From Candidatus Giovannonibacteria bacterium RIFOXYD1_FULL_48_21 (GTDB lineage Bacteria > Patescibacteriota > Minisyncoccia > JACPKW01 > UBA11713): DNA of 64,000 nt. The notes below the pieces were generated by a model. That model was not told where the DNA came from, did no database searches, and saw nothing but the letters and a program-made list of their open reading frames with translations. Numbering within the stretch: position 1 is the first letter of the stretch; each line of letters opens with the position of its first letter. The DNA lies in the NCBI GenBank assembly GCA_001778985.1, contig MFIU01000004.1, forward strand, positions 3,067-67,066, read 5' to 3'. Positions 1,770 through 50,270 of the stretch are shown here, one piece after another. The position numbers were made by a program, and so were the translations under genes.

Positions 1770-2960
1770 TTAAGCCCCTAAAATGCCTTCGCTGAAGCGG
1801 TTTTCGGTGCCGATGAAAATGCCTTTTTTGCGCAAAGAAAAGCTCTCCAAAATTCCCAGCGCCCAAAAAAGGCTGATGAGGCTTGATCCGCCATAAGAGA
1901 GAAATGGCATCCCCAAGCCGGTTATCGGCAATACGCCCGAATTCATGCCGATATGAATCGCGGACTGAAAAAGCAGTAAAATCGCGAGCCCCGCCGCGTA
2001 AAGTTTTTCAAAATTTGATTCTCCGTAAATTCCAGCCCGCAGAACGCGCCAGATGATAATACTGAAAAAAAACAATAAAAATACGACGCCGAGAAAACCC
2101 CATTCTTCCGCGAAAGCCGCGAAAATAAAATCGGTTTCATGTTCCGGTAAAAATTCCAGCCGCGATTGGGTGCCAAAGCCTATGCCTTTTCCAAAAATTT
2201 CCCCCGAACCTATAGCGATAACCGACTGCTGGGCGTGATAACCCGCTCCACGGATGTCGCCTTGCGGATTTATAAAAGCGGTAATCCTTGTTTTTTGATA
2301 AGGCAATAAAAAAAAGTTCCAAGCGACAGTTGTTATCAATAAACCAGTAAAAAACAAAACAATGAGATGGCGCAGTTTTATTCCGCCAACTAAAGCCATG
2401 CCCAGCCAAATTGCTCCCAAAACAATTGCTGACCCCAAATCCGGCTGCAACATCACCAACGCCATCGGCACAGCCACATAAACGAACGAAATAAAGAGAT
2501 GCACGAATCTGGCAATCTCAACATGTCTTTTAGAAAAATATTTTGCCAAAATTAAAACCGAAACAGGTTTTAAGAGTTCCACCGGCTCAATGGTCACTCC
2601 GCCGATCTTGAGCCAGCTGGCGGCGCCTTTCACAGCATACCCTGTCAAAATCAAAAAAATAAGCGCGCCAACCAAAATAAAATATAAAATAAGCAAAAAA
2701 ATGCTGTTTGTTTTAAGGAAACTCCAATCGATAAAAATCGCGCTCATGAAAAATACCGCAGCCCCGGCCGATGCCCAAATAATTTGCCGGATAAAAAAAT
2801 AATCCTCGCCCAGACTCGGCCCGCTTAGCCCAAGCGAGGCGAGCGAGGCTGGCCCTCCTGCGCCGAATGATTTCATCGTGGCAAGCCCCAAAAGAACAAG
2901 CATCAGCGCCGCCAAAAGTAGAGTCCAATCAAGACTCCTCCACATGCGGCTGGGGTTCAT
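1770..2960 (-). CDS. ftsW: SEDS-family peptidoglycan polymerase FtsW/RodA
   Basis: Polytopic membrane protein with the C-terminal LPITGLGMPFLSYGGSSL motif diagnostic of FtsW/RodA/SpoVE. Start set to the internal ATG (MNPSRMW) abutting the upstream gene stop. Confidence 0.8.
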   Translation of the reverse strand: MNPSRMWRSLDWTLLLAALMLVLLGLATMKSFGAGGPASLASLGLSGPSLGEDYFFIRQIIWASAGAAVFFMSAIFIDWSFLKTNSIFLLILYFILVGALIFLILTGYAVKGAASWLKIGGVTIEPVELLKPVSVLILAKYFSKRHVEIARFVHLFISFVYVAVPMALVMLQPDLGSAIVLGAIWLGMALVGGIKLRHLIVLFFTGLLITTVAWNFFLLPYQKTRITAFINPQGDIRGAGYHAQQSVIAIGSGEIFGKGIGFGTQSRLEFLPEHETDFIFAAFAEEWGFLGVVFLLFFFSIIIWRVLRAGIYGESNFEKLYAAGLAILLLFQSAIHIGMNSGVLPITGLGMPFLSYGGSSLISLFWALGILESFSLRKKGIFIGTENRFSEGILGA

Positions 2961-3739
2961 GGTGTTTGTCTTAATAAAATATCCGCGCGCAAAACTCCGC
3001 TTATGGCCTGTGGCCATGTAAATACCATATTTTTCTCTTCGCCGATGTCTAAGCGATTTAGCAAAGTTTTGGATACCCCTAAAACCTCTCCTTCTTGGCT
3101 AAGAAGTATAGCTCCTATTTCAATATTTTTATAAATTTGGTTCTCTTGATTTTTAATTCTTACCCCCAGACGCGGCGAAGATGAATCTTGAAGCAAGATA
3201 TCTCTTTGTAAAATATCTATTTTTAATGGCCGCGCTTCTCCTGCTTCCCAAGCAACTTCGCGCATTTCCAACAAAACTCTTTTTGGTACGCGATTTTCCG
3301 CCAGAATATTTGGCTCAAAAATTAAAAATTTCTCTCCAGACCAAATAAAAGTGCTGTTCTCGCGTACAGCGATAAGCACGCCGTTTTCATCATAAAGCTT
3401 AAAAGCGTAGACGAATTTCCCAGTTTTTAAAAATTGATTGCTGTTTTCTAAAAGCGCAGCTGCATCATACACTCCCTGGCGCGTCTGGAAAAAACGCGTC
3501 CATAAAATCGTGAGGTCGTGAATTTGCTCGGAGCAGGAGGCGCAGCGTGCTTCGGCGCCTCCGCAATCAATTCCTTCTTCGTCTTGATTTTTGCGATTAT
3601 CAAAACAGGTTGGCTCCGGCCGGAAATAATAAATCAGCCCGCCGACAATCAAAAAAATCACAGCTGCGAAAAGCACGAAAACCCAGAGCTGCCTCCTAAG
3701 TCCCCAAGAAAAAATCGGCATAGAATAAGTATATAACAA
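2957..3739 (-). CDS. hypothetical N-terminally membrane-anchored protein with Cys cluster (CFDNRKNQDEEGIDCGG...CASC)
   Basis: Long ORF in operon position between ftsW and the amidase gene neighbourhood. One TM helix. No recognisable family. Confidence 0.5.
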   Translation of the reverse strand: MLYTYSMPIFSWGLRRQLWVFVLFAAVIFLIVGGLIYYFRPEPTCFDNRKNQDEEGIDCGGAEARCASCSEQIHDLTILWTRFFQTRQGVYDAAALLENSNQFLKTGKFVYAFKLYDENGVLIAVRENSTFIWSGEKFLIFEPNILAENRVPKRVLLEMREVAWEAGEARPLKIDILQRDILLQDSSSPRLGVRIKNQENQIYKNIEIGAILLSQEGEVLGVSKTLLNRLDIGEEKNMVFTWPQAISGVLRADILLRQTP

Positions 3740-3759
3740 ACCTGCTATAATAAAAAATA

Positions 3760-4674
3760 ATGCTTAAACACGCAAAACTAGTAATATTGGCAATTTTAAT
3801 ACTAATAGTTGCGTATTATTTTGATATCGCCCGCGTCGGCACGACCGCTTATTATTTGGCGGGAGTATTTTTTGGAAAAGAAGTGCGCGCCGAAGAGCTT
3901 CTGGAAAAATATAAAAATGGCGAGGTAAAAATTTTAATAGTCCCCGGGCACGATAAAAAAAATTATGGCGCACAATACCGAGGGGTAACCGAAGCAAGTT
4001 TAAACGCCGAGCTGGGAAATTATTTATTTGATTCTTTGCGAAACAACGGAAAATTTTCCGTTTTTATCACGAATAACAGCAGCGGAGAACGCAACGATTG
4101 GATTTTGGATTACGTAAAAAGCCAGAACACGGCAATCGCCGCGTTTAAAGAAAAAGTGAAAACTATTTTTAAAAACGCCGTCAAAATCGGAGCGGTAACA
4201 AAAGAAACAAAAGTTTTTCATAACCCGGCCGCGGACAACATTTCACAAATTCTTTACGGCATAAATAAATGGGCAAACGACAATGGCATGGATATCGTGC
4301 TCCACATACATTTTAACGACTATCCAGGCAGAACATACGATATGCCCGGCAAATACAAAGGGTTCGCGATATACGTGCCGGACAACCAATTCCCCAACGG
4401 AAAAGCAAGTATGGAGATCGCGGGGTTTATAAAAAACGAACTTGAGAAAATTGTCAAAGAAAGTAATTTCCCTGGAGAAAAAGATGTTCTTATAGAAGAC
4501 CAGCAGCTGATCGCAGTGGGCTCAAACGCTTCCCGGGAAGGCGTTTCATTATTAATAGAATACGGGTATATTTACGAATCTAAATTGTTAAATAAAGATT
4601 TGCGGCCGTTTGTGCTGCGCGAATTAGCCGAAGCAACACATAGGGGCCTCGCGAATTTTTTCAAAAAATATTAA
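3760..4674 (+). CDS. N-acetylmuramoyl-L-alanine amidase-like (Amidase_3-type) cell-wall hydrolase
   Basis: N-terminal anchor. ILIVPGHD...TEASLN...IVLHIHFND spacing resembles the Zn-ligand H/E/H pattern of Amidase_3. Assignment from motif recall only. Confidence 0.5.
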   Translation: MLKHAKLVILAILILIVAYYFDIARVGTTAYYLAGVFFGKEVRAEELLEKYKNGEVKILIVPGHDKKNYGAQYRGVTEASLNAELGNYLFDSLRNNGKFSVFITNNSSGERNDWILDYVKSQNTAIAAFKEKVKTIFKNAVKIGAVTKETKVFHNPAADNISQILYGINKWANDNGMDIVLHIHFNDYPGRTYDMPGKYKGFAIYVPDNQFPNGKASMEIAGFIKNELEKIVKESNFPGEKDVLIEDQQLIAVGSNASREGVSLLIEYGYIYESKLLNKDLRPFVLRELAEATHRGLANFFKKY

Positions 4675-5344: not shown

Positions 5345-6130
5345 ACTCAACGACATAGCTACCCTGCGGTGCTCCTGGCGGAACAGCAGGTAGACCAGAG
5401 GTCGCCTCCTTCCGGTCCTCTCGTACTAGGAAGAACCCCCCTCAAGAATCAACGAGTGCAGTAGATAGGAGACCAACCTGTCTCACGACGGTCTGAACCC
5501 AGCTCACGTACCTTTTTAATTGGCGAACAGCCAAACCCTTGGGAGCTTCTCCACCCCCAGGATAAGATGAGCCGACATCGAGGTGCCGAACTCCGCCGTC
5601 GATATGGACTCTTGGGCGGAACTAGCCTGTTATCCCCGGAGTAGCTTTTATCCGTTAATCTTCCACCGGTCCTACACCGAATGGTCGGTTCACTAGATTC
5701 TGCTTTCGCATCTGCTCGGCCTGACCGCCTCGCAGTTAAGCCGGCTTGTCCTCTTACAGGTCCAGCGCGATTTCCATCCGCGCTAAGCCGACCTTGATAA
5801 ACCCCTCCGTTACCTTTTAGGAGGGTTGCGCCCCACACAAACTGCCCACCAGACACTGTCCCCAAACGTTTTCTCCGTCGAGGTTAGAATATAAGTCCTT
5901 TAAGATGGGTATTTCACTGGTGACTCCGTCCCGCCCGAGAGCAGGACTTCAAAGTCTCCCCACTATGCTACGCATAAAAAATTCATACCCAATATCAAGT
6001 TGCAGTAAAGCTTCCGGGGTCTTTTCGTCTAACTGCACCTAACCGGCATCTTCACCGGTATTGTATTTTCACCGAGCGAATCCTCGAGACAGTCCCCCAG
6101 TCGTTACGCCTTTCGTGCGCGTCGGAACTC

Positions 6131-6861
6131 CATGTTAATCCACTATTTCTAATGGCACAGACTATATCTTCATCTCAACGTCTTGAGAATATCTTTTTGA
6201 CTATATTTTCTTTTGCCGCTTGGATTCATTTTGCAAGCAATCATGACTATCTTTTTTAATCCTGACACTCTTCGATGTTTCCCTTTCTTCATAAGGCGGC
6301 AAACTTGTCTGAATCGATAAAAATCTTTTATCTTTGGAGACAAGAGCGGATACTTCTCGAAATGTGGTATTACGCGGTCGATCAAATCGTTAAGACTTCT
6401 TACTTCATATTTAAGAGTCTTATCCGAAAGATCTCGTCGCATAAATCCGCACCCAAGAGTTTTCTGTATGAGATAAAGGACGTTGGCCCTTTCTTCATTC
6501 TGACTTATAGATAAACTTGGTTTGGTTTCCCATCCTACCAAGAATTTCTTTCGTCTTGAGAAAGATACACAAAAACTTCCTTCACCATCTACATATCCAG
6601 ATATATACTCGCGATAATTTCTCTTTTTGTTGAGAGCCGGCATGTTATAGATTCATTATACTACAAATCTATCTAGGTCGCCATTGATTAACGGCGACCT
6701 AAGTCGTTACGGGGTCAATCTCGACGCTATGGTCGGGACGACTTCCCACGGTATTATCCTGCCTTCATTGCTTGAGCCTTGTTACTCAAACTCCAGCGAG
6801 AACTTCACCGTTATAAGCCGGTGTTTCATTGCGGCATCGCTGCCGCATCGGGCAACTTCCT
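6131..6861 (-). mobile_element. group I intron in 23S rRNA at the E. coli ~1917 site (GUCGGGU | intron | GAGUUCCGAC)
   Basis: Exon sequence CCUUGUCGGGU...GAGUUCCGACGCGCACGAAAGGCG is contiguous with E. coli GUCGGGUAAGUUCCGACCUGCACGAAUGGCG once 731 nt are removed. The 5' exon ends in U and the insert ends in G. The insert carries a LAGLIDADG ORF on the rRNA strand. Confidence 0.75.
6170..6643 (-). CDS. LAGLIDADG homing endonuclease (single-motif, I-CreI-like)
   Basis: 157-aa ORF inside the 23S intron with YISGYVDGEGSF (the LAGLIDADG motif) near the N-terminus. Confidence 0.8.
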   Translation of the reverse strand: MPALNKKRNYREYISGYVDGEGSFCVSFSRRKKFLVGWETKPSLSISQNEERANVLYLIQKTLGCGFMRRDLSDKTLKYEVRSLNDLIDRVIPHFEKYPLLSPKIKDFYRFRQVCRLMKKGKHRRVSGLKKIVMIACKMNPSGKRKYSQKDILKTLR

Positions 6862-6914: not shown

Positions 6915-8440
6915 GACGAGGGCTTCGGACAGTCAGCCCCTCGACTCGGTGCTATGCACCTCGCTCGGGGTAAACCCTAGAAATCCAGGATTTATCCTGA
7001 GTGAGATACGCAGTATCGAATCGAAGGACCGCCATCGTTAACCTTCTCGCATTGGTCAGGCGTCACCCCCTATACATCCTCTTACGAGTTCGCAGGGAGC
7101 TGTGTTTTTGATAAACAGTCGCCAGGGGTACTTTCGCTGCGCCCCGCCTGCCATATATTTCTATACGTTGGCGGGGAGGCCTTATTCCGAAGTTACGGCC
7201 GCTTTTTTGCCGAGTTCCTTGAGGATCTCTCACTCGTTCGCCTGAGGCTACTCGCCTCACCCACCTGTGTCGGTTTTCGGTACGGTTTCCCTCTTCATAA
7301 TCTTAGAAGCTTTTCTAGGAAGGCTGCTTTGTTCCATTTCCTCCGCCGAGGCGGAAAATTTTTGCTCGACTAAGAGTTGCCAAAAGGCCGTCCCGAGATT
7401 TTCTACGGGACACTCCTCATCGCACAAACGCGAATCCAATAACACGCAGAACATACTAACCTTCGTCCCTTCATCGAAAAAGAAGGAAGTCACGGAATAT
7501 TAACCGTGTGTCCATTACCTGCGGCTTTCGCCATTGGCTTAGGACCGACTAACCCTTGGCTGACAATCATTGCCAAGGAAACCTTAGGTTTGCGGCGTGC
7601 CGGTTTTTCACCGGCATTGTGGTTACTTGTGCCAACATTCTCACTTCCCAGCGCTCCATCCCGGCTCACGCCGTGGACTTCACTGCACTAGGAACGCTCT
7701 CCTACCCCCCGCTTTACATTAATATTTCAAATGTTAGCGGAGCCTCACCTTCGGCACTCTCTTTAGTCCCGATTATCTGCGGCGCAAGGTCTCTTGACGA
7801 GTGAGCTGTTACGCACTCTTTGAAGGATGGCTGCTTCTAAGCCAACCTCCTCGCTGTCATTGAAACCTCACCGCCTCACTTACACTTAAGAGAGATTTTG
7901 GGGCCTTAGATTGAGATCTGGGCTGTTGCCCTCTCGACCGACGGAGCTTAGCCCCCGTAGTCTGACTGGCCGCCCAAAGCTACGCCATTCGGAGTTTGGT
8001 AGGTACGTCGAGATTTCTCCCTTTACGAACCTTCCAGTAGCTCTACCTGCGTAGTTGTAGCGGACGCTAGCCCAAAAGCTATTTCGGAGAGAACCAGCTA
8101 TTCCCAGGTTCGATTAGCTTTTCACTCCTACCCCCAACTCATCCGATAGCGTTGTACGACTAACCGGTGCGGACCTCCTCCCGCCTTTCGGCGGGATTCA
8201 TCCTGGCCAGGGGTAGCTCACCTGGCTTCGGGTCTATAGCAAACTGCAAACGCCCTATTAAGACTCGGTTTCCCTACGCCTCCTCCCGCTATAACGGAAT
8301 TAGACTAGCAGCGTACTATAACTCGTTGGCTCATTCTTCAATAGGCACCCCGTCACCCTGAACACGCTTGCGCGTGAACGGGCTCCGAGTCCTTGTAAGC
8401 ATATGGTTTCAGGTACTATTTCACCGCCCTCACCGGGCTG

Positions 8441-10204: not shown

Positions 10205-11374
10205 TCACCCTACGTTCGAGAGGAGTGTGGATAAAATTTGGGCGCTTTTTCTAATCTTTCTTTGCATAGTTTTATAATCGACCTCGACCAATCCAAATCT
10301 TGGCCAGAAGCCCTTGTCCCATTCGAAGTTATCCAGCAAAGACCAGTAGAAATACCCCCGCACATCTACGCCTTCCCCGATTGCTTTTGCGACCCATTCC
10401 AAGTGTTCTTTGATGAATTTTTCTCTATGAATATCCCTTGCGTCCGCCACGCCGTTTTCAGTTATATAAATTGGTTTATTATATTTTTTTAATTCTTTCA
10501 AAACCTGATAAACCCCCTCCGGATAAATTTCCCAGCCCATGTCAGATACTTCTTTATTTTTATTTTGGTTAAACCTAAATCCATAAGTTTGATTATGGAA
10601 ATAATAGTTAAGACCAATAAAATCTTGGTAATCCTTAATTTTGTTCAAAAACCAATTATTCCAGAAATGATTTAAAGCTGGCGTAAGCCATCCCTCAAAA
10701 TAAGAATTATTTTTAGCAATGCCGATTTGTGCGCTGTTATTTATATCGCGAATAACTTTGTGCGCCACCTTATGCACTTTCACCAAATTTTTATAAACTT
10801 TTAAAAACTTCCAAAACGATTTTTTCTGCGGTGGCCATTCCCCGTGTAAATAACTATTCATTGTGTAAATCTCCGGCTCGTTTAAAGTAACCCAAAATTT
10901 TACCTCTGGAAAATTCTTTGCCATTTTTTCAGAAAATATTGCAAAGTATTTTGGAAATTCTTTTGAAGTTACTCCTCCTTTGTCTCGCATCCAAATTGGG
11001 ATCGTCCAATGCCAGAGAGTCACAAATGGTTCCAATCCTCTCTCACGGAGGGCTTTAATTACTTCCCGGTAGTGTTCGATTTCTTTTTCATTGAATTTAC
11101 CTCCTTCGGGTTCAATGCGCGACCATTCGATGGAAAAGCGGTGAGCATTGTGTCCCAAAGATTTAGCGATATCGAAATCTTCTCTGAAGCGGTTATAGTG
11201 ATCGCAGGCTTTGCCGGAAATATAATTTTCCGGCGGATACTTTCCCCCGCTTTCTTTTGAAAGTCTCTCGGCGTTAGTTTTTTCCCATTCTGACCAGTCG
11301 TTTTTATTATTCCCCTCAACTTGATGAGCCGAGGTTGCCGCTCCCCAGAGAAAATCTTTTGGAAAGTTAAACAT
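10205..11374 (-). CDS. glycoside hydrolase family 1 beta-glucosidase-like
   Basis: N-terminal FLWGAATSAHQVEG, the acid/base TLNEP and the nucleophile ITENG motifs of GH1. Confidence 0.8.
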   Translation of the reverse strand: MFNFPKDFLWGAATSAHQVEGNNKNDWSEWEKTNAERLSKESGGKYPPENYISGKACDHYNRFREDFDIAKSLGHNAHRFSIEWSRIEPEGGKFNEKEIEHYREVIKALRERGLEPFVTLWHWTIPIWMRDKGGVTSKEFPKYFAIFSEKMAKNFPEVKFWVTLNEPEIYTMNSYLHGEWPPQKKSFWKFLKVYKNLVKVHKVAHKVIRDINNSAQIGIAKNNSYFEGWLTPALNHFWNNWFLNKIKDYQDFIGLNYYFHNQTYGFRFNQNKNKEVSDMGWEIYPEGVYQVLKELKKYNKPIYITENGVADARDIHREKFIKEHLEWVAKAIGEGVDVRGYFYWSLLDNFEWDKGFWPRFGLVEVDYKTMQRKIRKSAQILSTLLSNVG

Positions 11375-38873: not shown

Positions 38874-40238
38874 ATGCAGTATTCAATAATCCAAAAATCA
38901 CGACTTGAAGGTGGCCTACGGCTAGACGCGGAATTTTACCATCCGGAAAAATTAGAGGCGATGGAAAAGTTATCTAAATTCGGCATTAGCACTATTGCCG
39001 AGAATTTTCGGAACGTAAAAGAAACTTTTAACCCCCTCCGACATAAGTTAGCTACCACCCCCGCTCGCGTTTTTGATTTGTCTGATGTGAGTTCTTTTCT
39101 ACTGGAAGCAGGAGCAAAAGTAGAAAAAGCCGATGAAGTCGGCTCTACAAAAAAGATTATTCGCCAAAATGATGTTTTGATTTCTCGCTTGAGGCCTTAT
39201 CTCAAGGAAGTTTCTTTTGTGGGGTTTAATGAGGTTCAAAAACTGGCTTCAACCGAGTTTGTGGTTTTACGAAAAAAGAAGGATTCAAAGTTTCCTCCGC
39301 AAGCCCTTTTTGCATTTTTAACAACAGACGAAGTTCAAAATATTTTATTCTGGAGTCAAGGAGGAACAGAACATCCTCGCTTTTCCGAAAATCTTTTGAT
39401 GGGCTTAAAATTGCCGAAAACTTCGGAAAAGATGGCAGAAAGTATCGTAGATGATGTTAACGGCACTTACAAAAATTATCTGATATCACAAAATCTTTAC
39501 TCTCAAGCCGAGGATTTGCTGTTGGAAGAATTAGGATTGAAAGATAAAGATTTTGAGATTAAGGACGATTTGGCTTATATCGTCAATCTTTCTGAAATAA
39601 AATCCAACCATCGCGCTGACGCCGAATACTTCCAGCCGAAGTACGAAAACATTATGTCTCTAATTCGCGCGAATGGTGGAACAATGCTTGGCGATTTAGC
39701 AACGATGAAAAAAGGCATTGAGCCGGGGAGTGAGGTATATCAAGATGAGGGCAAACTATTTATTCGTGTAAGCAGCTTGTCTAAAAATGGGCTTGAAGAC
39801 AAAGACCAAAAGTATTTAAGCGATGAATTGTATCAGAAGTTAAAGAAAAATTACGAGCCGAAAGTTGGCGAGATTTTACTAACCAAAGACGCAACGCCAG
39901 GCACCGCTTATGTAGTGAAAGAGCCGATTGAGGGGATTGTTTCGAGCGGCATTTTACGCTTGAAGTTAAAGAATGAAAAGGTGGAAAATGAATATCTGGC
40001 ATTGTGTCTTAATTCCGTAATCGGACAAACTCAAGCGGAGCGCGATGGTGGGGGTTCTATCATTACACACTGGAGACCGGAACAAATCAAAAATGTTTTA
40101 ATTCCGATTTTACCCAAACCCACCCAGCAGAAAATCGCCGACTTAGTCCAAAAATCCCACGAAGCCCGCTCAAAAGCAAAACAACTTTTAGAACAAGCCA
40201 AATATAAAGTTGAACAATTGATTGAATCTAAAAAATAA
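38874..40238 (+). CDS. hsdS: type I-like specificity subunit HsdS (two target-recognition domains)
   Basis: Internal duplication with conserved LDAEFYHPEKLEAMEKL and ADAEYFQPKYENIMSLI spacer motifs typical of HsdS. Confidence 0.75.
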   Translation: MQYSIIQKSRLEGGLRLDAEFYHPEKLEAMEKLSKFGISTIAENFRNVKETFNPLRHKLATTPARVFDLSDVSSFLLEAGAKVEKADEVGSTKKIIRQNDVLISRLRPYLKEVSFVGFNEVQKLASTEFVVLRKKKDSKFPPQALFAFLTTDEVQNILFWSQGGTEHPRFSENLLMGLKLPKTSEKMAESIVDDVNGTYKNYLISQNLYSQAEDLLLEELGLKDKDFEIKDDLAYIVNLSEIKSNHRADAEYFQPKYENIMSLIRANGGTMLGDLATMKKGIEPGSEVYQDEGKLFIRVSSLSKNGLEDKDQKYLSDELYQKLKKNYEPKVGEILLTKDATPGTAYVVKEPIEGIVSSGILRLKLKNEKVENEYLALCLNSVIGQTQAERDGGGSIITHWRPEQIKNVLIPILPKPTQQKIADLVQKSHEARSKAKQLLEQAKYKVEQLIESKK

Positions 40239-41621: not shown

Positions 41622-41795
41622 ATGGTCAAATTCACACAAAAAGACGACAAAGAACTATATCAATGTGAGGAGTGCGGTTTTCACTATGAATACCGCGAGT
41701 GGGCGGAAAAATGCGAAGCGTGGTGCCGGGAACATAAGAATTGCAATATTGAGATTACTGCTCATGCATTTGAATTATTCTATTTGGGTTATTAA
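41622..41795 (+). CDS. Zn-ribbon miniprotein (57 aa), paralog of 50103..50270
   Basis: MVKFTQKDDKELYQCEECGFHYEYREWAEKCEAWCREHKNCNIEITAHAFELFYLGY. Cys4-5 ribbon. About 65 percent identical to the second copy. Not in the ORF track. Confidence 0.55.
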   Translation: MVKFTQKDDKELYQCEECGFHYEYREWAEKCEAWCREHKNCNIEITAHAFELFYLGY

Positions 41796-47777: not shown

Positions 47778-48320
47778 ATGAAAATTGAAGACGTAAAAAC
47801 GGCAATCAAGGTAGGCGATTTTGTACTAAGAAAAGATAATCGGAATAAGATAGATATTAAATATTCACCCGACCTTGATAAAGAAGTTCTTATTGACGAC
47901 TCAGCGAGAATATATTTGATCGTTCAAGACGGGATCATAAAGAAAATAGGTGGCTCTATTCAAAAGGGAGGCATTAAAGGAACTGTAAGTTTTTATATTG
48001 GCGCTATGACGGGGAGTCCTGGCAGGCCCAGGTTTATTTTACATTTACTCATTGAAAAAGCTCTTAAAAGCAAATCAAAAATGGAATTACATATGATTAC
48101 TTCCCCAAAAACTATGGCTAGGGTGAGTGGTTTATTTAGAACTAAGAAAATGAAAATTGCTAGTTTTAAGGAGATGGAAGATTTATGTAAGTCCGATTAC
48201 TATTCCAGAGAAAAGAAATATCCAGATTGGAACTTTCAAGAGAACCATAAACCATATCCCCCAGAATTAGAAAGGAAGTTCATGGCATATCATAGGAGGC
48301 GTTTAGGCAGAAAAAACTAA
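47778..48320 (+). CDS. hypothetical protein
   Basis: 180-aa ORF, by eye AT-rich. Confidence 0.4.
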   Translation: MKIEDVKTAIKVGDFVLRKDNRNKIDIKYSPDLDKEVLIDDSARIYLIVQDGIIKKIGGSIQKGGIKGTVSFYIGAMTGSPGRPRFILHLLIEKALKSKSKMELHMITSPKTMARVSGLFRTKKMKIASFKEMEDLCKSDYYSREKKYPDWNFQENHKPYPPELERKFMAYHRRRLGRKN

Positions 48321-49852
48321 TTTCTGGGCGGACAAAAAATTATTATCTCGTGAGATTCTTTTACATGGTTGCCGTTGCCGTTTTTTCGGTTTAATCCGAT
48401 TCTTGTTTCTCCTTGTCCCATAGTATATTGCCAACTAGGGAAGAATTGCTGAAATTCTTTGTAGTATTCTCTTATTGTGGGACAGTTGTTATAAGAAAGA
48501 ACAAAACCTCCTTTGTGGTTTTTTAATAAATCTCTCAAAGCCTCGTGCGGAAACCCATTATGATGGACTGGTATATTCCTCATTGGATAAATTCCTTTAA
48601 ACATTTTTGAATCTTTTCCGATATAGTAAGGGGGGTCGCAGTAAAGAAAATCATTTGGGTGATTTTTAATTACCTCCTGAAAATCTACACACTCTACTTT
48701 CAGATTATTCGGGTCAAAATCCCGAATATTTTCTATCATTCTTTTGTATCTTTTGTCGTTTAGGTAAATCTTAGACGACCAACCCATAAAGCCGGGGCCG
48801 TAGGATAAGTTAAAATTATAAACAAAATAAACTGCCAAAGTTAGCGGATCTAATTTTGTTTTTTTCTTCCAAACATCATTTAAAATCAAACGTATTTTTT
48901 CAAAGGTTGTTTTATTTGGCTTTAATTCTTTCAGTTTTTTGTAAAGAAGGTCTGATTTTTCTATTTGGAATTTCCAATAATTACAGAGAATATCGAAGAT
49001 ATCGTAGCCGATAACTTCTAGGCCCAGCTCCTTGCTCATGGCTATTTCAATAGAGCCGCCCCCAAAAAATGGAGAGACAATCCTGGTTATGTTACCGGGC
49101 AATAATTCAACTACATGTCCGACCGCTAAACTTTTCCCTCCCGCATATCTTATTGGAGAAAGAACAACTCTTTTATATTTATTTTGACTATTTGAATTTT
49201 TGCTTCTTATACGATCTAAAAAGACTTTCTTTTTGTAGGCGAGCGTGTTGTCTTTGGCACCATTTTCTAGGTTTCTTATAATTCTAACTACAACACCCCT
49301 TATTTCTACTTCCTTGCGATAAATTGGCAACATCGCCTGGTTCGCTGGCTGTAATTTAATACGGCCTTTCTCTCTATAAATCTTCTTGAGCGTTACTTCA
49401 TTGTCATCAATAATTGCGACAATAGTCTGTCCGTCATCAGCAGTTTTTTGTTTACGAATTACAACAACATCACCATCAAAAATTCCATCACCAATCATAC
49501 TATCCCCTGCAACTTTTAGGGCGTAATGTTCACCATGCTTACCTATAAAATCTCCAGGAATAGAAATTTTTTCTGGTATCTCAATCGCCTCAATGGGGTG
49601 CCCGGCGGCGATGGTGCCCAAAAGAGGAATCTTGATTAATTTTTCTGCGGATGAAATTTCAATGCTCCGGCGCTGGTTTTTCCGTTTATTTAGATATCCC
49701 TTTTCTCTTAGCGCCTCGATATGCTGGTGGATGTTAGAAACAGAGGAAAGGCGCAGGCGCTTTCGTATGTCCTCAAGCGAGGGCGCAAAGCCGCGCTTTT
49801 TGGTGTAGGAGGTTACAAAATCCAAGACCTGCTTCTGCCGAGGAGTTAGCAT
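48317..49852 (-). CDS. LexA repressor (HTH + S24 autopeptidase) fused to Dam-class (D12) N6-adenine DNA methyltransferase
   Basis: Residues 1-205 hold a LexA-type HTH, the AG cleavage site (TIAAGHP), VAGDSMIGDGIFDGD (catalytic Ser), TLKK (catalytic Lys) and VVRIIRN. After a 35-aa linker come PIRYAGGKS, SPFFGGGS (motif I) and LYCDPPYY (motif IV), as in Dam. Single uninterrupted 511-codon frame. Confidence 0.7.
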   Translation of the reverse strand: MLTPRQKQVLDFVTSYTKKRGFAPSLEDIRKRLRLSSVSNIHQHIEALREKGYLNKRKNQRRSIEISSAEKLIKIPLLGTIAAGHPIEAIEIPEKISIPGDFIGKHGEHYALKVAGDSMIGDGIFDGDVVVIRKQKTADDGQTIVAIIDDNEVTLKKIYREKGRIKLQPANQAMLPIYRKEVEIRGVVVRIIRNLENGAKDNTLAYKKKVFLDRIRSKNSNSQNKYKRVVLSPIRYAGGKSLAVGHVVELLPGNITRIVSPFFGGGSIEIAMSKELGLEVIGYDIFDILCNYWKFQIEKSDLLYKKLKELKPNKTTFEKIRLILNDVWKKKTKLDPLTLAVYFVYNFNLSYGPGFMGWSSKIYLNDKRYKRMIENIRDFDPNNLKVECVDFQEVIKNHPNDFLYCDPPYYIGKDSKMFKGIYPMRNIPVHHNGFPHEALRDLLKNHKGGFVLSYNNCPTIREYYKEFQQFFPSWQYTMGQGETRIGLNRKNGNGNHVKESHEIIIFCPPRN

Positions 49853-50102
49853 ATATTTATTTTAACGATATCTGGCATCTCTTGCTTGTGGATAACTTTC
49901 GGTTTTCTTTCGGTATATAAGTAGTAAAATTAAACTGCCAACAAAAAAATTAGGAAAGTAGTTCTACAAGCTCACTATAAATAAATTTATGAACTCATGA
50001 AAAATTATTCAAAAACTGGCGGGAGGAAAGGAATTCCAGGGTACCGCACCCCGGTGCATTTTCGCTCGCGGAAGAATTTGAAAAATGTAAAAATGAAAAC
50101 AT

Positions 50103-50270
50103 ATGGTGAAAGAAATCGCAAAAGACGATAAAGAACTCTACCAGTGCGAAGAGTGCGGTCTGCATTACGCCAAGAAAGAAACCGCGGAAAAATGCGAGGC
50201 CTGGTGCCGGGAGCACAAAAGCTGCAACTTGGAGATAATCAAGGAAGCCGTCAAAACAGAAAATTTTTGA
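50103..50270 (+). CDS. Zn-ribbon miniprotein (55 aa), paralog of 41622..41795
   Basis: MVKEIAKDDKELYQCEECGLHYAKKETAEKCEAWCREHKSCNLEIIKEAVKTENF. Confidence 0.55.
   Translation: MVKEIAKDDKELYQCEECGLHYAKKETAEKCEAWCREHKSCNLEIIKEAVKTENF

Follow-up and report, generated by a model that had tools for sequence, protein, structure and literature searches.

LexA-methyltransferase fusions in Patescibacteria: a restriction-modification methyltransferase with a putative operator at its own promoter

A gene of Candidatus Giovannonibacteria bacterium RIFOXYD1_FULL_48_21 encodes, in a single open reading frame (ORF), a complete LexA repressor followed by a DNA adenine methyltransferase (MTase), and it lies beside a candidate nuclease gene. 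The 64,000 nucleotides of contig MFIU01000004.1 (assembly GCA_001778985.1, positions 3,067 to 67,066) that were analysed are referred to here as the window. In restriction-modification (R-M) systems a toxic nuclease has to be kept in balance with a protective methylase, for which three modes of control are known: C proteins, MTases that bear a helix-turn-helix (HTH), and antisense RNAs. Patescibacteria have tiny genomes and few CRISPR systems, and they are thought to rely heavily on R-M. A LexA fused to the methylase would wire the SOS sensor directly into the protective arm of R-M.

The fusion gene and its nuclease partner

The fusion ORF, as read in the window sequence, starts with ATG and runs through 511 codons with zero internal stops. 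Its product matches the Pfam families LexA_DNA_bind, Peptidase_S24 and MethyltransfD12 (the last over residues 236-478, 3.6e-32; for the first two see Table 1), and all three matches far exceed the gathering scores. An initial annotation, made from the letters of the sequence, had proposed a single-ORF fusion of LexA to an N6-adenine MTase, and this is borne out by the ORF, by the Pfam matches to both halves and by the NCBIfam equivalog model TIGR00498, which the LexA half passes with 187.2 bits against a cut-off of 110.95 (residues 2-195). The same three-domain architecture of ~511 amino acids is found in at least 120 clusters (90% identity) that are 73-84% identical to the fusion, and the identical gene, with the same neighbours, is present on contigs of independent JGI and ENA assemblies. 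Because of these copies and clusters, and with full-length homologs numbering in the hundreds, a frameshift or assembly artefact at the junction, against which the annotation had cautioned, is ruled out.

The best PDB match of the LexA half is T. maritima LexA (3k2z, E 7.8e-36), and E. coli LexA (1jhh) is also close. The LexA and MTase motifs named at the outset are all present, with A83-G84, S118 and K156 conserved in 119-120 of 120 close fusion homologs and FFGGGS and DPPYY in at least 119 of 120. The Ala-Gly, Ser and Lys residues are likewise invariant in 40 fusions with other MTase classes, a degree of conservation which indicates that the self-cleavage machinery is intact and under purifying selection. 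Since these residues are invariant in the 120 and the 40 fusions, a RecA-triggered split of the HTH from an S24-MTase fragment is plausible. Among the close D12 fusions the LexA half evolves faster (median identity 65% versus 87% for the MTase half).

The MTase half is matched over the full length of PF02086 (112.5 bits, profile positions 1-253 of 253) and by the PADLOC type II MTase model PDLC03281 (fusion residues 204-505, 1.2e-112), and its closest solved structures are D12 MTases such as DpnM. The label "Dam-class" that it had been given holds at the level of the Pfam D12 family and fails at that of the Dam family, as the model TIGR00571 is not reached (58.9 bits against a cut-off of 114.85). 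Stand-alone MTase homologs align to the fusion from about residue 204, and they share the stretch L..KK..FL..I.SKN..NKYKRV..SPIRYAGGKS, which corresponds to fusion residues ~204-240. Because of this shared stretch, the supposed 35-residue basic linker turns out to be the conserved native N-terminus of the MTase family, and the real joint consists of about 8 residues (NLENGAKDN) through which the C-terminal RIIRNLEN of LexA meets the MTase N-terminus. Most of the fusions have no internal Met near the joint that could serve as an internal start for a LexA-free MTase, so the MTase is expected to be made only as a LexA fusion. A near-consensus sigma-70-type promoter in antisense (TTGGCA-17-TATAAT, 11/12; 49254-49282, forward strand) lies exactly at the LexA/MTase joint and is probably due to chance, its position not being conserved in 16 other loci.

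The two halves differ in base composition, and the MTase half is, as had been judged by eye, the more AT-rich. Guanine plus cytosine (GC) make up 42.8% of the LexA half and 35.0% of the MTase half; the adjoining gene for a 180-amino-acid protein has 35.2%, and the window as a whole 46.7%. The MTase half has stand-alone counterparts in DPANN archaea and a few further phyla (70-78% identity) and in Helicobacter and Campylobacter (~55% identity). The GC content and this distribution argue for lateral transfer of the core formed by the MTase (M) and nuclease (R) genes. Of the 4-bp palindromes, GATC is the one most strongly depleted in the window (80 observed against 222 expected under a maximal-order Markov model), which is only a hint as to the recognition specificity of the MTase. 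CGTACG and GGATCC are absent from the window, with 5.0 and 3.2 occurrences expected respectively.

The partner gene converges on the fusion gene, the two 3′ ends overlapping tail-to-tail by 4 nt. Its 180-amino-acid product has 575 homologs (up to 86% identity) on the same contigs as the fusion, and one member of the family is labelled a type II restriction endonuclease by one source. Searches of its sequence against Pfam, NCBIfam, PADLOC and PDB sequences returned no match. From 25 homologs AlphaFold gave a confident model (pLDDT 83.5, pTM 0.82), and by comparison of the modelled fold, the sole means of its identification, the protein is a candidate GIY-YIG nuclease; its YIG half-motif reads IKKIGGS, with Lys in place of Tyr. 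GIY-YIG nucleases with this same replacement, which accompany alpha-class PF02086 MTases, make up the R.HpyAORF481P branch of the Hpy188I family (PMC2630997); here too an alpha-class MTase stands beside an R.Hpy188I-family nuclease with Lys in the half-motif. A nuclease homolog adjoins the stand-alone MTase in most loci, and the pair is kept in three distant lineages. In the H. pylori locus (HP0478-HP0483) the gene order is HP0478, typA, D12 MTase, nuclease and C5 MTase, and no motif is assigned to HP0481 in the methylome of H. pylori 26695.

The fusion thus supplies the M component of a type II R-M module, laterally mobile and of the HpyAORF481P branch. As a conserved nuclease partner adjoins it, the fusion is the M gene of an R-M pair and not the lone Dam-like enzyme that was first supposed, and the orphan Dam-like alternative is ruled out by that partner together with the score below the Dam cut-off. 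HpyAXII (GTAC), considered as the Helicobacter relative, is ruled out in turn, its nuclease being a PabI-type glycosylase. In DPANN copies of the MTase-nuclease core an ORF of 52-62 amino acids lies just upstream of the MTase (L028:3698-3856, L032:3663-3821 and L047:3670-3858, in numbered comparison loci), and that of L047 matches the MazE/AbrB fold (PF04014, 29.6 bits); these small ORFs may encode a different controller protein for the same R-M core.

Table 1. Features of the LexA-MTase locus, in positions of the window
Feature	Position	Strand	Remarks
LexA-MTase fusion gene	48317..49852	-	511 aa + stop; uninterrupted ORF, three Pfam domains
LexA winged-HTH DNA-binding domain	49667..49849	-	residues 2-62; LexA_DNA_bind (PF01726) 2.8e-16; recognition helix SVSNIHQHIEAL
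S24 autoprotease / dimerisation domain	49286..49627	-	residues 76-189; Peptidase_S24 (PF00717) 4.5e-28
Cleavage site A83-G84 (TIAAGHP)	49601-49606	-	
Ser118 nucleophile (GDSM)	49499-49501	-	
Lys156 general base (TLKK)	49385-49387	-	
D12 (alpha-class) N6-adenine DNA MTase, M.HpyAORF481P family	48320..49255	-	residues ~200-511
MTase motif I FFGGGS	49052-49069	-	
MTase motif IV DPPYY	48623-48637	-	
GIY-YIG restriction endonuclease candidate, R.HpyAORF481P branch	47778..48320	+	180 aa; convergent
Putative LexA operator TTTCGGT-TTTC-TTTCGGT	49897..49914	+	tandem direct repeat, 11-bp register
DnaA-box-like 9-mer TTATCCACA	49887..49895	-	abuts putative operator
Candidate fusion promoter	49914..49941	-	TTGGCA 49941-49936, 16-nt spacer, TATATA 49919-49914; reads through operator

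A type I R-M specificity subunit (PF01420 Methylase_S) is encoded at ~38874-40238 on the forward strand (L001:19615-20979), some 8 kb away from the module. Another large gene lies beside it, and these genes may form a small defence cluster.

The upstream cassette and its recurrence

Upstream of 23 D12 fusions there is a near-invariant TGTGGATAAC, the reverse complement of the DnaA-box-like 9-mer of the window. Adjoining it is a tandem direct repeat of a 7-mer in 11-bp register that usually abuts or overlaps a TATAAT-like box. The elements were counted in the 160 nt upstream of 28 fusion loci and of 33 loci of LexA-less MTase homologs, and in random windows of the same loci. The xTTC tandem repeat is present at 26 of the 28 fusion loci, at 0 of the 33 LexA-less loci and in ~2% of random windows, and the DnaA-box consensus TT[AT]TNCACA occurs at 25/28 fusion promoters, 1/33 stand-alone MTase promoters and in 1.6% of random windows. 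The same cassette precedes LexA fusions to other MTase classes.

The repeat varies in step with the recognition helix of the LexA domain. A helix ST[IV]HQH is paired with the half-site (T/G)TTCGGT, STAHFH or STAHYH with TTTCTAT, ST[AV]HEH with TTCGGG, STVHHH with GTTCTA, and TVHKH with TTTCGCT; both copies of the repeat always change together, and the correspondence between helix and half-site holds across MTase classes. In the loci L005 and L008 the LexA domains are 81% identical, yet helix and operator both differ, so more than a deep phylogenetic split lies behind the association. Free LexA genes on two related contigs, whose products both pass TIGR00498, carry the same type of repeat over the -10 box (TTTCGGC-N4-TTACGGT in L092 and CTTCGGT-N4-TTTCGGC in L104). 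Direct-repeat LexA boxes are an established class, as in the GTTC-N7-GTTC of Alphaproteobacteria (PMC8565304). With a tandem repeat that abuts or overlaps the -10 box in 26/28 fusion loci and covaries with the helix, as would be looked for in an autoregulatory operator, the repeat is most likely the LexA operator of the fusion.

A palindromic operator had been anticipated upstream of the gene; a scan gave only AT-rich chance palindromes, and the conserved element is the tandem direct repeat. The exact operator repeat is single-copy in the 64 kb, and further copies, such as an SOS regulon would provide, were sought in the window and amounted to degenerate matches at chance level. There is one operator per locus, at the promoter of the fusion itself (L016 has an inverted pair). 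Because each locus has this single operator at the promoter of the fusion, autoregulation is indicated rather than the targeting of methylation to operators by the LexA HTH, which the annotation had raised as an alternative.

The DnaA-like box was surveyed in the window (49887-49895) and in the upstream regions of L005-L025, L086, L088, L089 and L091. Its distance and orientation relative to the repeat vary among loci, and an extended variant AAGTTATCCACA occurs, as do TTTTCCACA and TTATTCACA, which still fit TT[AT]TNCACA. The two free lexA promoters that were examined lack the box. A second TTATCCACA in the window (10226-10234, reverse strand) falls inside a glycoside-hydrolase-like ORF (10205-11374) and is ascribed to chance. 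The DnaA-like box may add an input from replication status.

With respect to the gene, the cassette is inverted in the window as well as in L050, L015 and L017. The window encodes two zinc-ribbon-like DUF7128 proteins of 55-57 amino acids (50103-50270, forward strand, and ~41622-41795); one of these genes diverges from the fusion gene, and it is towards this gene that the inverted operator cassette points.

Among species-representative genomes the full-length fusion is found in about 25 Patescibacteria of many classes, at 65-82% identity. The source labels of fusion clusters include Candidatus Giovannonibacteria, Wolfebacteria and "Patescibacteria group", and the named examples are all Patescibacteria. 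The databases label the fusions "LexA", "DNA adenine methylase" or "hypothetical". Viral contigs hold only the separate halves and no full-length fusion, so carriage of the fusion by phages is not supported.

The design extends beyond D12 partners. Searched exhaustively, the representatives at 50% identity yielded many proteins of 400-890 amino acids whose first ~200 residues match the LexA half at 45-60% identity. The ten longest LexA-headed proteins all join LexA to a DNA MTase (gamma N6_Mtase/Eco57I/TaqI_C, C5 DNA_methylase or beta N6_N4_Mtase), and of 40 more such proteins 34 have a DNA-MTase domain (27 N6_N4, 4 D12, 2 C5 and 1 gamma). At least four MTase classes, unrelated to one another, carry LexA domains of a single clade. 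When LexA domains are placed in a neighbour-joining tree, one clade of 58 leaves takes in 42 of the 44 fused representatives and only 4 apparent free LexAs; free LexAs make up nearly all of the other 43 leaves.

In L085, a beta-class fusion, the LexA module shares 69-73% identity with the LexAs of D12 fusions that have the same specificity. As it is as close to them as the D12-fusion LexAs are to one another, cassettes of LexA plus operator appear to have moved between MTase genes. Around this LexA-N6_N4 fusion (L085:2978-3800 and 5419-6195), a divergent HTH_3 and Peptidase_M78 (ImmR/ImmA-like) pair precedes it, and after it come a second N6_N4 MTase and then a convergent gene of 393 amino acids. 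Fusions of LexA to other MTase classes likewise have a tail-to-tail partner gene, in one case with an MwoI_N nuclease domain.

The Portnoybacteria contig L023 carries two LexA-MTase fusions 1 kb apart (2401-4260 and 3-1457), LexA being joined to a D12 MTase in one and to a gamma-class N6_Mtase/Eco57I MTase in the other; this second fusion has its own helix, TVHKH, and its own operator, TTTCGCT-N4-TTTCGCT. In L025 a free LexA-like protein of 191 amino acids (7565-8137; TIGR00498 108.5 bits, just below the 110.95 cut-off) is encoded 2 kb from a LexA-MTase/nuclease module, so that this genome, at least, has both a free LexA-like and a fused protein.

Proposed control and its alternatives

The reading favoured here, to which we assign a probability of about 0.6, is that the MTase promoter is autorepressed by the fusion and that repression is relieved by RecA-stimulated self-cleavage. 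In Patescibacteria, the N-terminus of an R-M MTase would have acquired a complete LexA together with the operator/promoter cassette of that LexA. The fusion would dimerise via its S24 domain, and its winged HTH would bind TTTCGGT-N4-TTTCGGT abutting or overlapping the -10 box of its own promoter, so that MTase synthesis would be negatively autoregulated by a sensor that is physically linked to the enzyme. RecA would be activated by DNA damage, self-restriction of under-methylated DNA included, and would stimulate cleavage at Ala83-Gly84; the HTH would be detached, the promoter derepressed, and MTase output would rise. Transcription of the nuclease gene may be hindered simultaneously, as the tail-to-tail overlap leaves no room for a terminator and a burst of M transcription could interfere with that of R. 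In a newly entered naive cell, where the promoter would be unrepressed, an early burst of MTase would be expected, and fast diversification of helix and operator would limit cross-talk between co-resident systems, as has been argued for C proteins.

Several observations weigh against this reading. The DNA binding, RecA dependence, physiological direction and DnaA role that it assigns are drawn from anatomy and conservation. The covariation of helix and operator is partly confounded by shared ancestry. The TTGGCA-16-TATATA assigned as the fusion promoter was read by hand, is an imperfect match and was not reported by a consensus scan, and the cassette in front of it is inverted in the window. 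The upstream region of the nuclease gene is not conserved and contains no operator and no DnaA box, so that control of R is conjecture. There is no recA gene in the 64-kb window, and RecA is presumed to be present in this genome from what is generally known of Patescibacteria. The full-length AlphaFold model of the fusion is poor (pLDDT 64.7, pTM 0.45), and its domain packing is not interpretable. A rise in MTase during phage-induced SOS would weaken defence, which leaves the selective logic uncertain.

Damage might instead lead to a loss of protection, cleavage inactivating or destabilising the MTase (for example through exposed degrons) so that the nuclease cuts chromosomal or incoming DNA more aggressively and kills damaged or infected cells. 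We regard this as unlikely, although the cleavage machinery is intact, all of the cellular MTase would be made as fusion, and the C-terminus left after cleavage, ...TIAA, is similar to VAA, the end by which the N-terminal fragment of E. coli LexA becomes a ClpXP substrate. In E. coli that degron marks mainly the N-terminal fragment, which here would comprise only the HTH, and cleavage of the repressor would also derepress the promoter and replenish the full-length protein. R-M modules do kill cells when methylation drops (PMC3874152), which is in keeping with a loss of protection.

Somewhat less probable again is that the fusion doubles as, or replaces, the global SOS repressor, its LexA governing the host SOS regulon in these reduced genomes, with the MTase as a passenger that makes lexA addictive. 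The LexA half does pass the equivalog model, NCBI names several fusions "transcriptional repressor LexA", and the free LexAs of related contigs use the same type of repeat, so that host SOS boxes could be cross-recognised. A master regulator tied to its regulon would, however, hardly diversify in specificity as rapidly as the fused LexAs do, and these form a clade of their own apart from the free LexAs. The exact operator, moreover, is found a single time in the 64 kb, and other loci have one each; L023 has a pair of differing fusions and L025 a free LexA-like protein near the module, and the M-R core bears signs of lateral transfer in its GC content and distribution.

The S24 domain is the LexA dimer interface, and the LexA part could be a mere dimerising DNA-binding module, an SsoII-like autoregulator or a tether for local marking, in which self-cleavage is irrelevant. 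MTases with N-terminal HTH autoregulators do work without a protease (PMC3874152), but this is the least probable of the three alternatives, since the invariance of Ala-Gly, Ser and Lys across 160 fusions and four MTase classes is not expected of a dispensable cleavage reaction, and a single operator per locus argues against genome-wide targeting by a tether.

Beyond autorepression relieved by self-cleavage, a wider proposal is that a portable cassette of Patescibacteria, made up of a DnaA box, an operator/promoter with the tandem repeat and a complete self-cleaving LexA, has been grafted onto many unrelated R-M MTases (alpha, beta, gamma N6A/N4C and C5), making R-M responsive to RecA-sensed damage; its chances are put at slightly below even. 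If it is true, this would be a fourth, previously unrecognised mode of R-M control beside C proteins, plain HTH-MTases and antisense RNAs, providing a built-in brake on, or trigger for, self-restriction. R-M might then be responsive to DnaA-sensed replication status too, and rapid co-evolution of helix with operator would divide co-resident systems into orthogonal "immunity groups". An understanding of such control would inform how Patescibacteria, as episymbionts, manage autoimmunity and phage defence. The helix-operator pairs form a natural series for the study of how repressor specificity evolves and are a potential source of compact, orthogonal, damage-inducible repressor-operator parts. 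Why the DnaA box has been kept at fusion promoters is a question that can be tested.

Comparison with known systems

In agreement with the annotation, which knew of no characterised LexA-MTase fusion, the literature searched yielded no description of one, with a mention in Sánchez-Osuna et al. 2017 on the SOS network of Patescibacteria not excluded. That literature included a review of R-M regulation (PMC3874152), a paper on Bacteroidetes LexA (PMC8565304) and a 2026 preprint on MTases of the candidate phyla radiation (CPR). The fusion design in Patescibacteria is apparently undescribed, and its component families are all known.

As an R-M module, the locus resembles HpyAORF481P of H. pylori (HP0481/HP0482), with which it shares an alpha-class PF02086 MTase (~55% identity over residues 202-505) and, beside it, a homologous GIY-YIG nuclease (E ~1e-25) with Lys for Tyr in the YIG half-motif. 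In Helicobacter, unlike in the fusion locus, the two genes are co-directional and the MTase is without LexA, tandem-repeat operator or DnaA box. As a repressor, the fusion resembles canonical LexA (TIGR00498; 3k2z, 1jhh) in domain order, in catalytic residues and in scoring above the equivalog cut-off, and its predicted operator, an xTTC-N7-xTTC overlapping the promoter of its own gene, is like the direct-repeat LexA boxes (PMC8565304). It differs from canonical LexA in being joined to an enzyme, in belonging to a separate clade, in appearing to control only its own promoter, and in a specificity that diversifies among relatives.

Binding of an MTase to its own promoter is an established mode of R-M control (references in PMC3874152), known for MTases of the SsoII, Ecl18kI, EcoRII, MspI and ScrFI type (references 169-172 therein). 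By analogy, these share with the fusion an N-terminal DNA-binding module that presumably represses the M promoter and balances M and R; in the fusion loci a putative operator lies at the M promoter, and none is seen at the R gene. The SsoII-type enzymes differ in being C5 MTases that bear a short HTH and lack both a protease and a link to DNA damage, whereas the fusions contain an entire LexA with an intact autocleavage site, involve four MTase classes and have a predicted direct-repeat operator; the LexA winged HTH and S24 domain are not homologous to the SsoII-type module. The C proteins of type II R-M systems, such as C.PvuII (PMC2175313), provide the other parallel, in that a dedicated regulator travels with the module along with its own operator, and with diversified specificities there would be less cross-talk among co-resident systems. 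C proteins are small, separate activator-repressors with an XRE-type HTH that are co-transcribed with R, whereas the LexA module is fused to M, has no operator at R and carries a signal-responsive protease.

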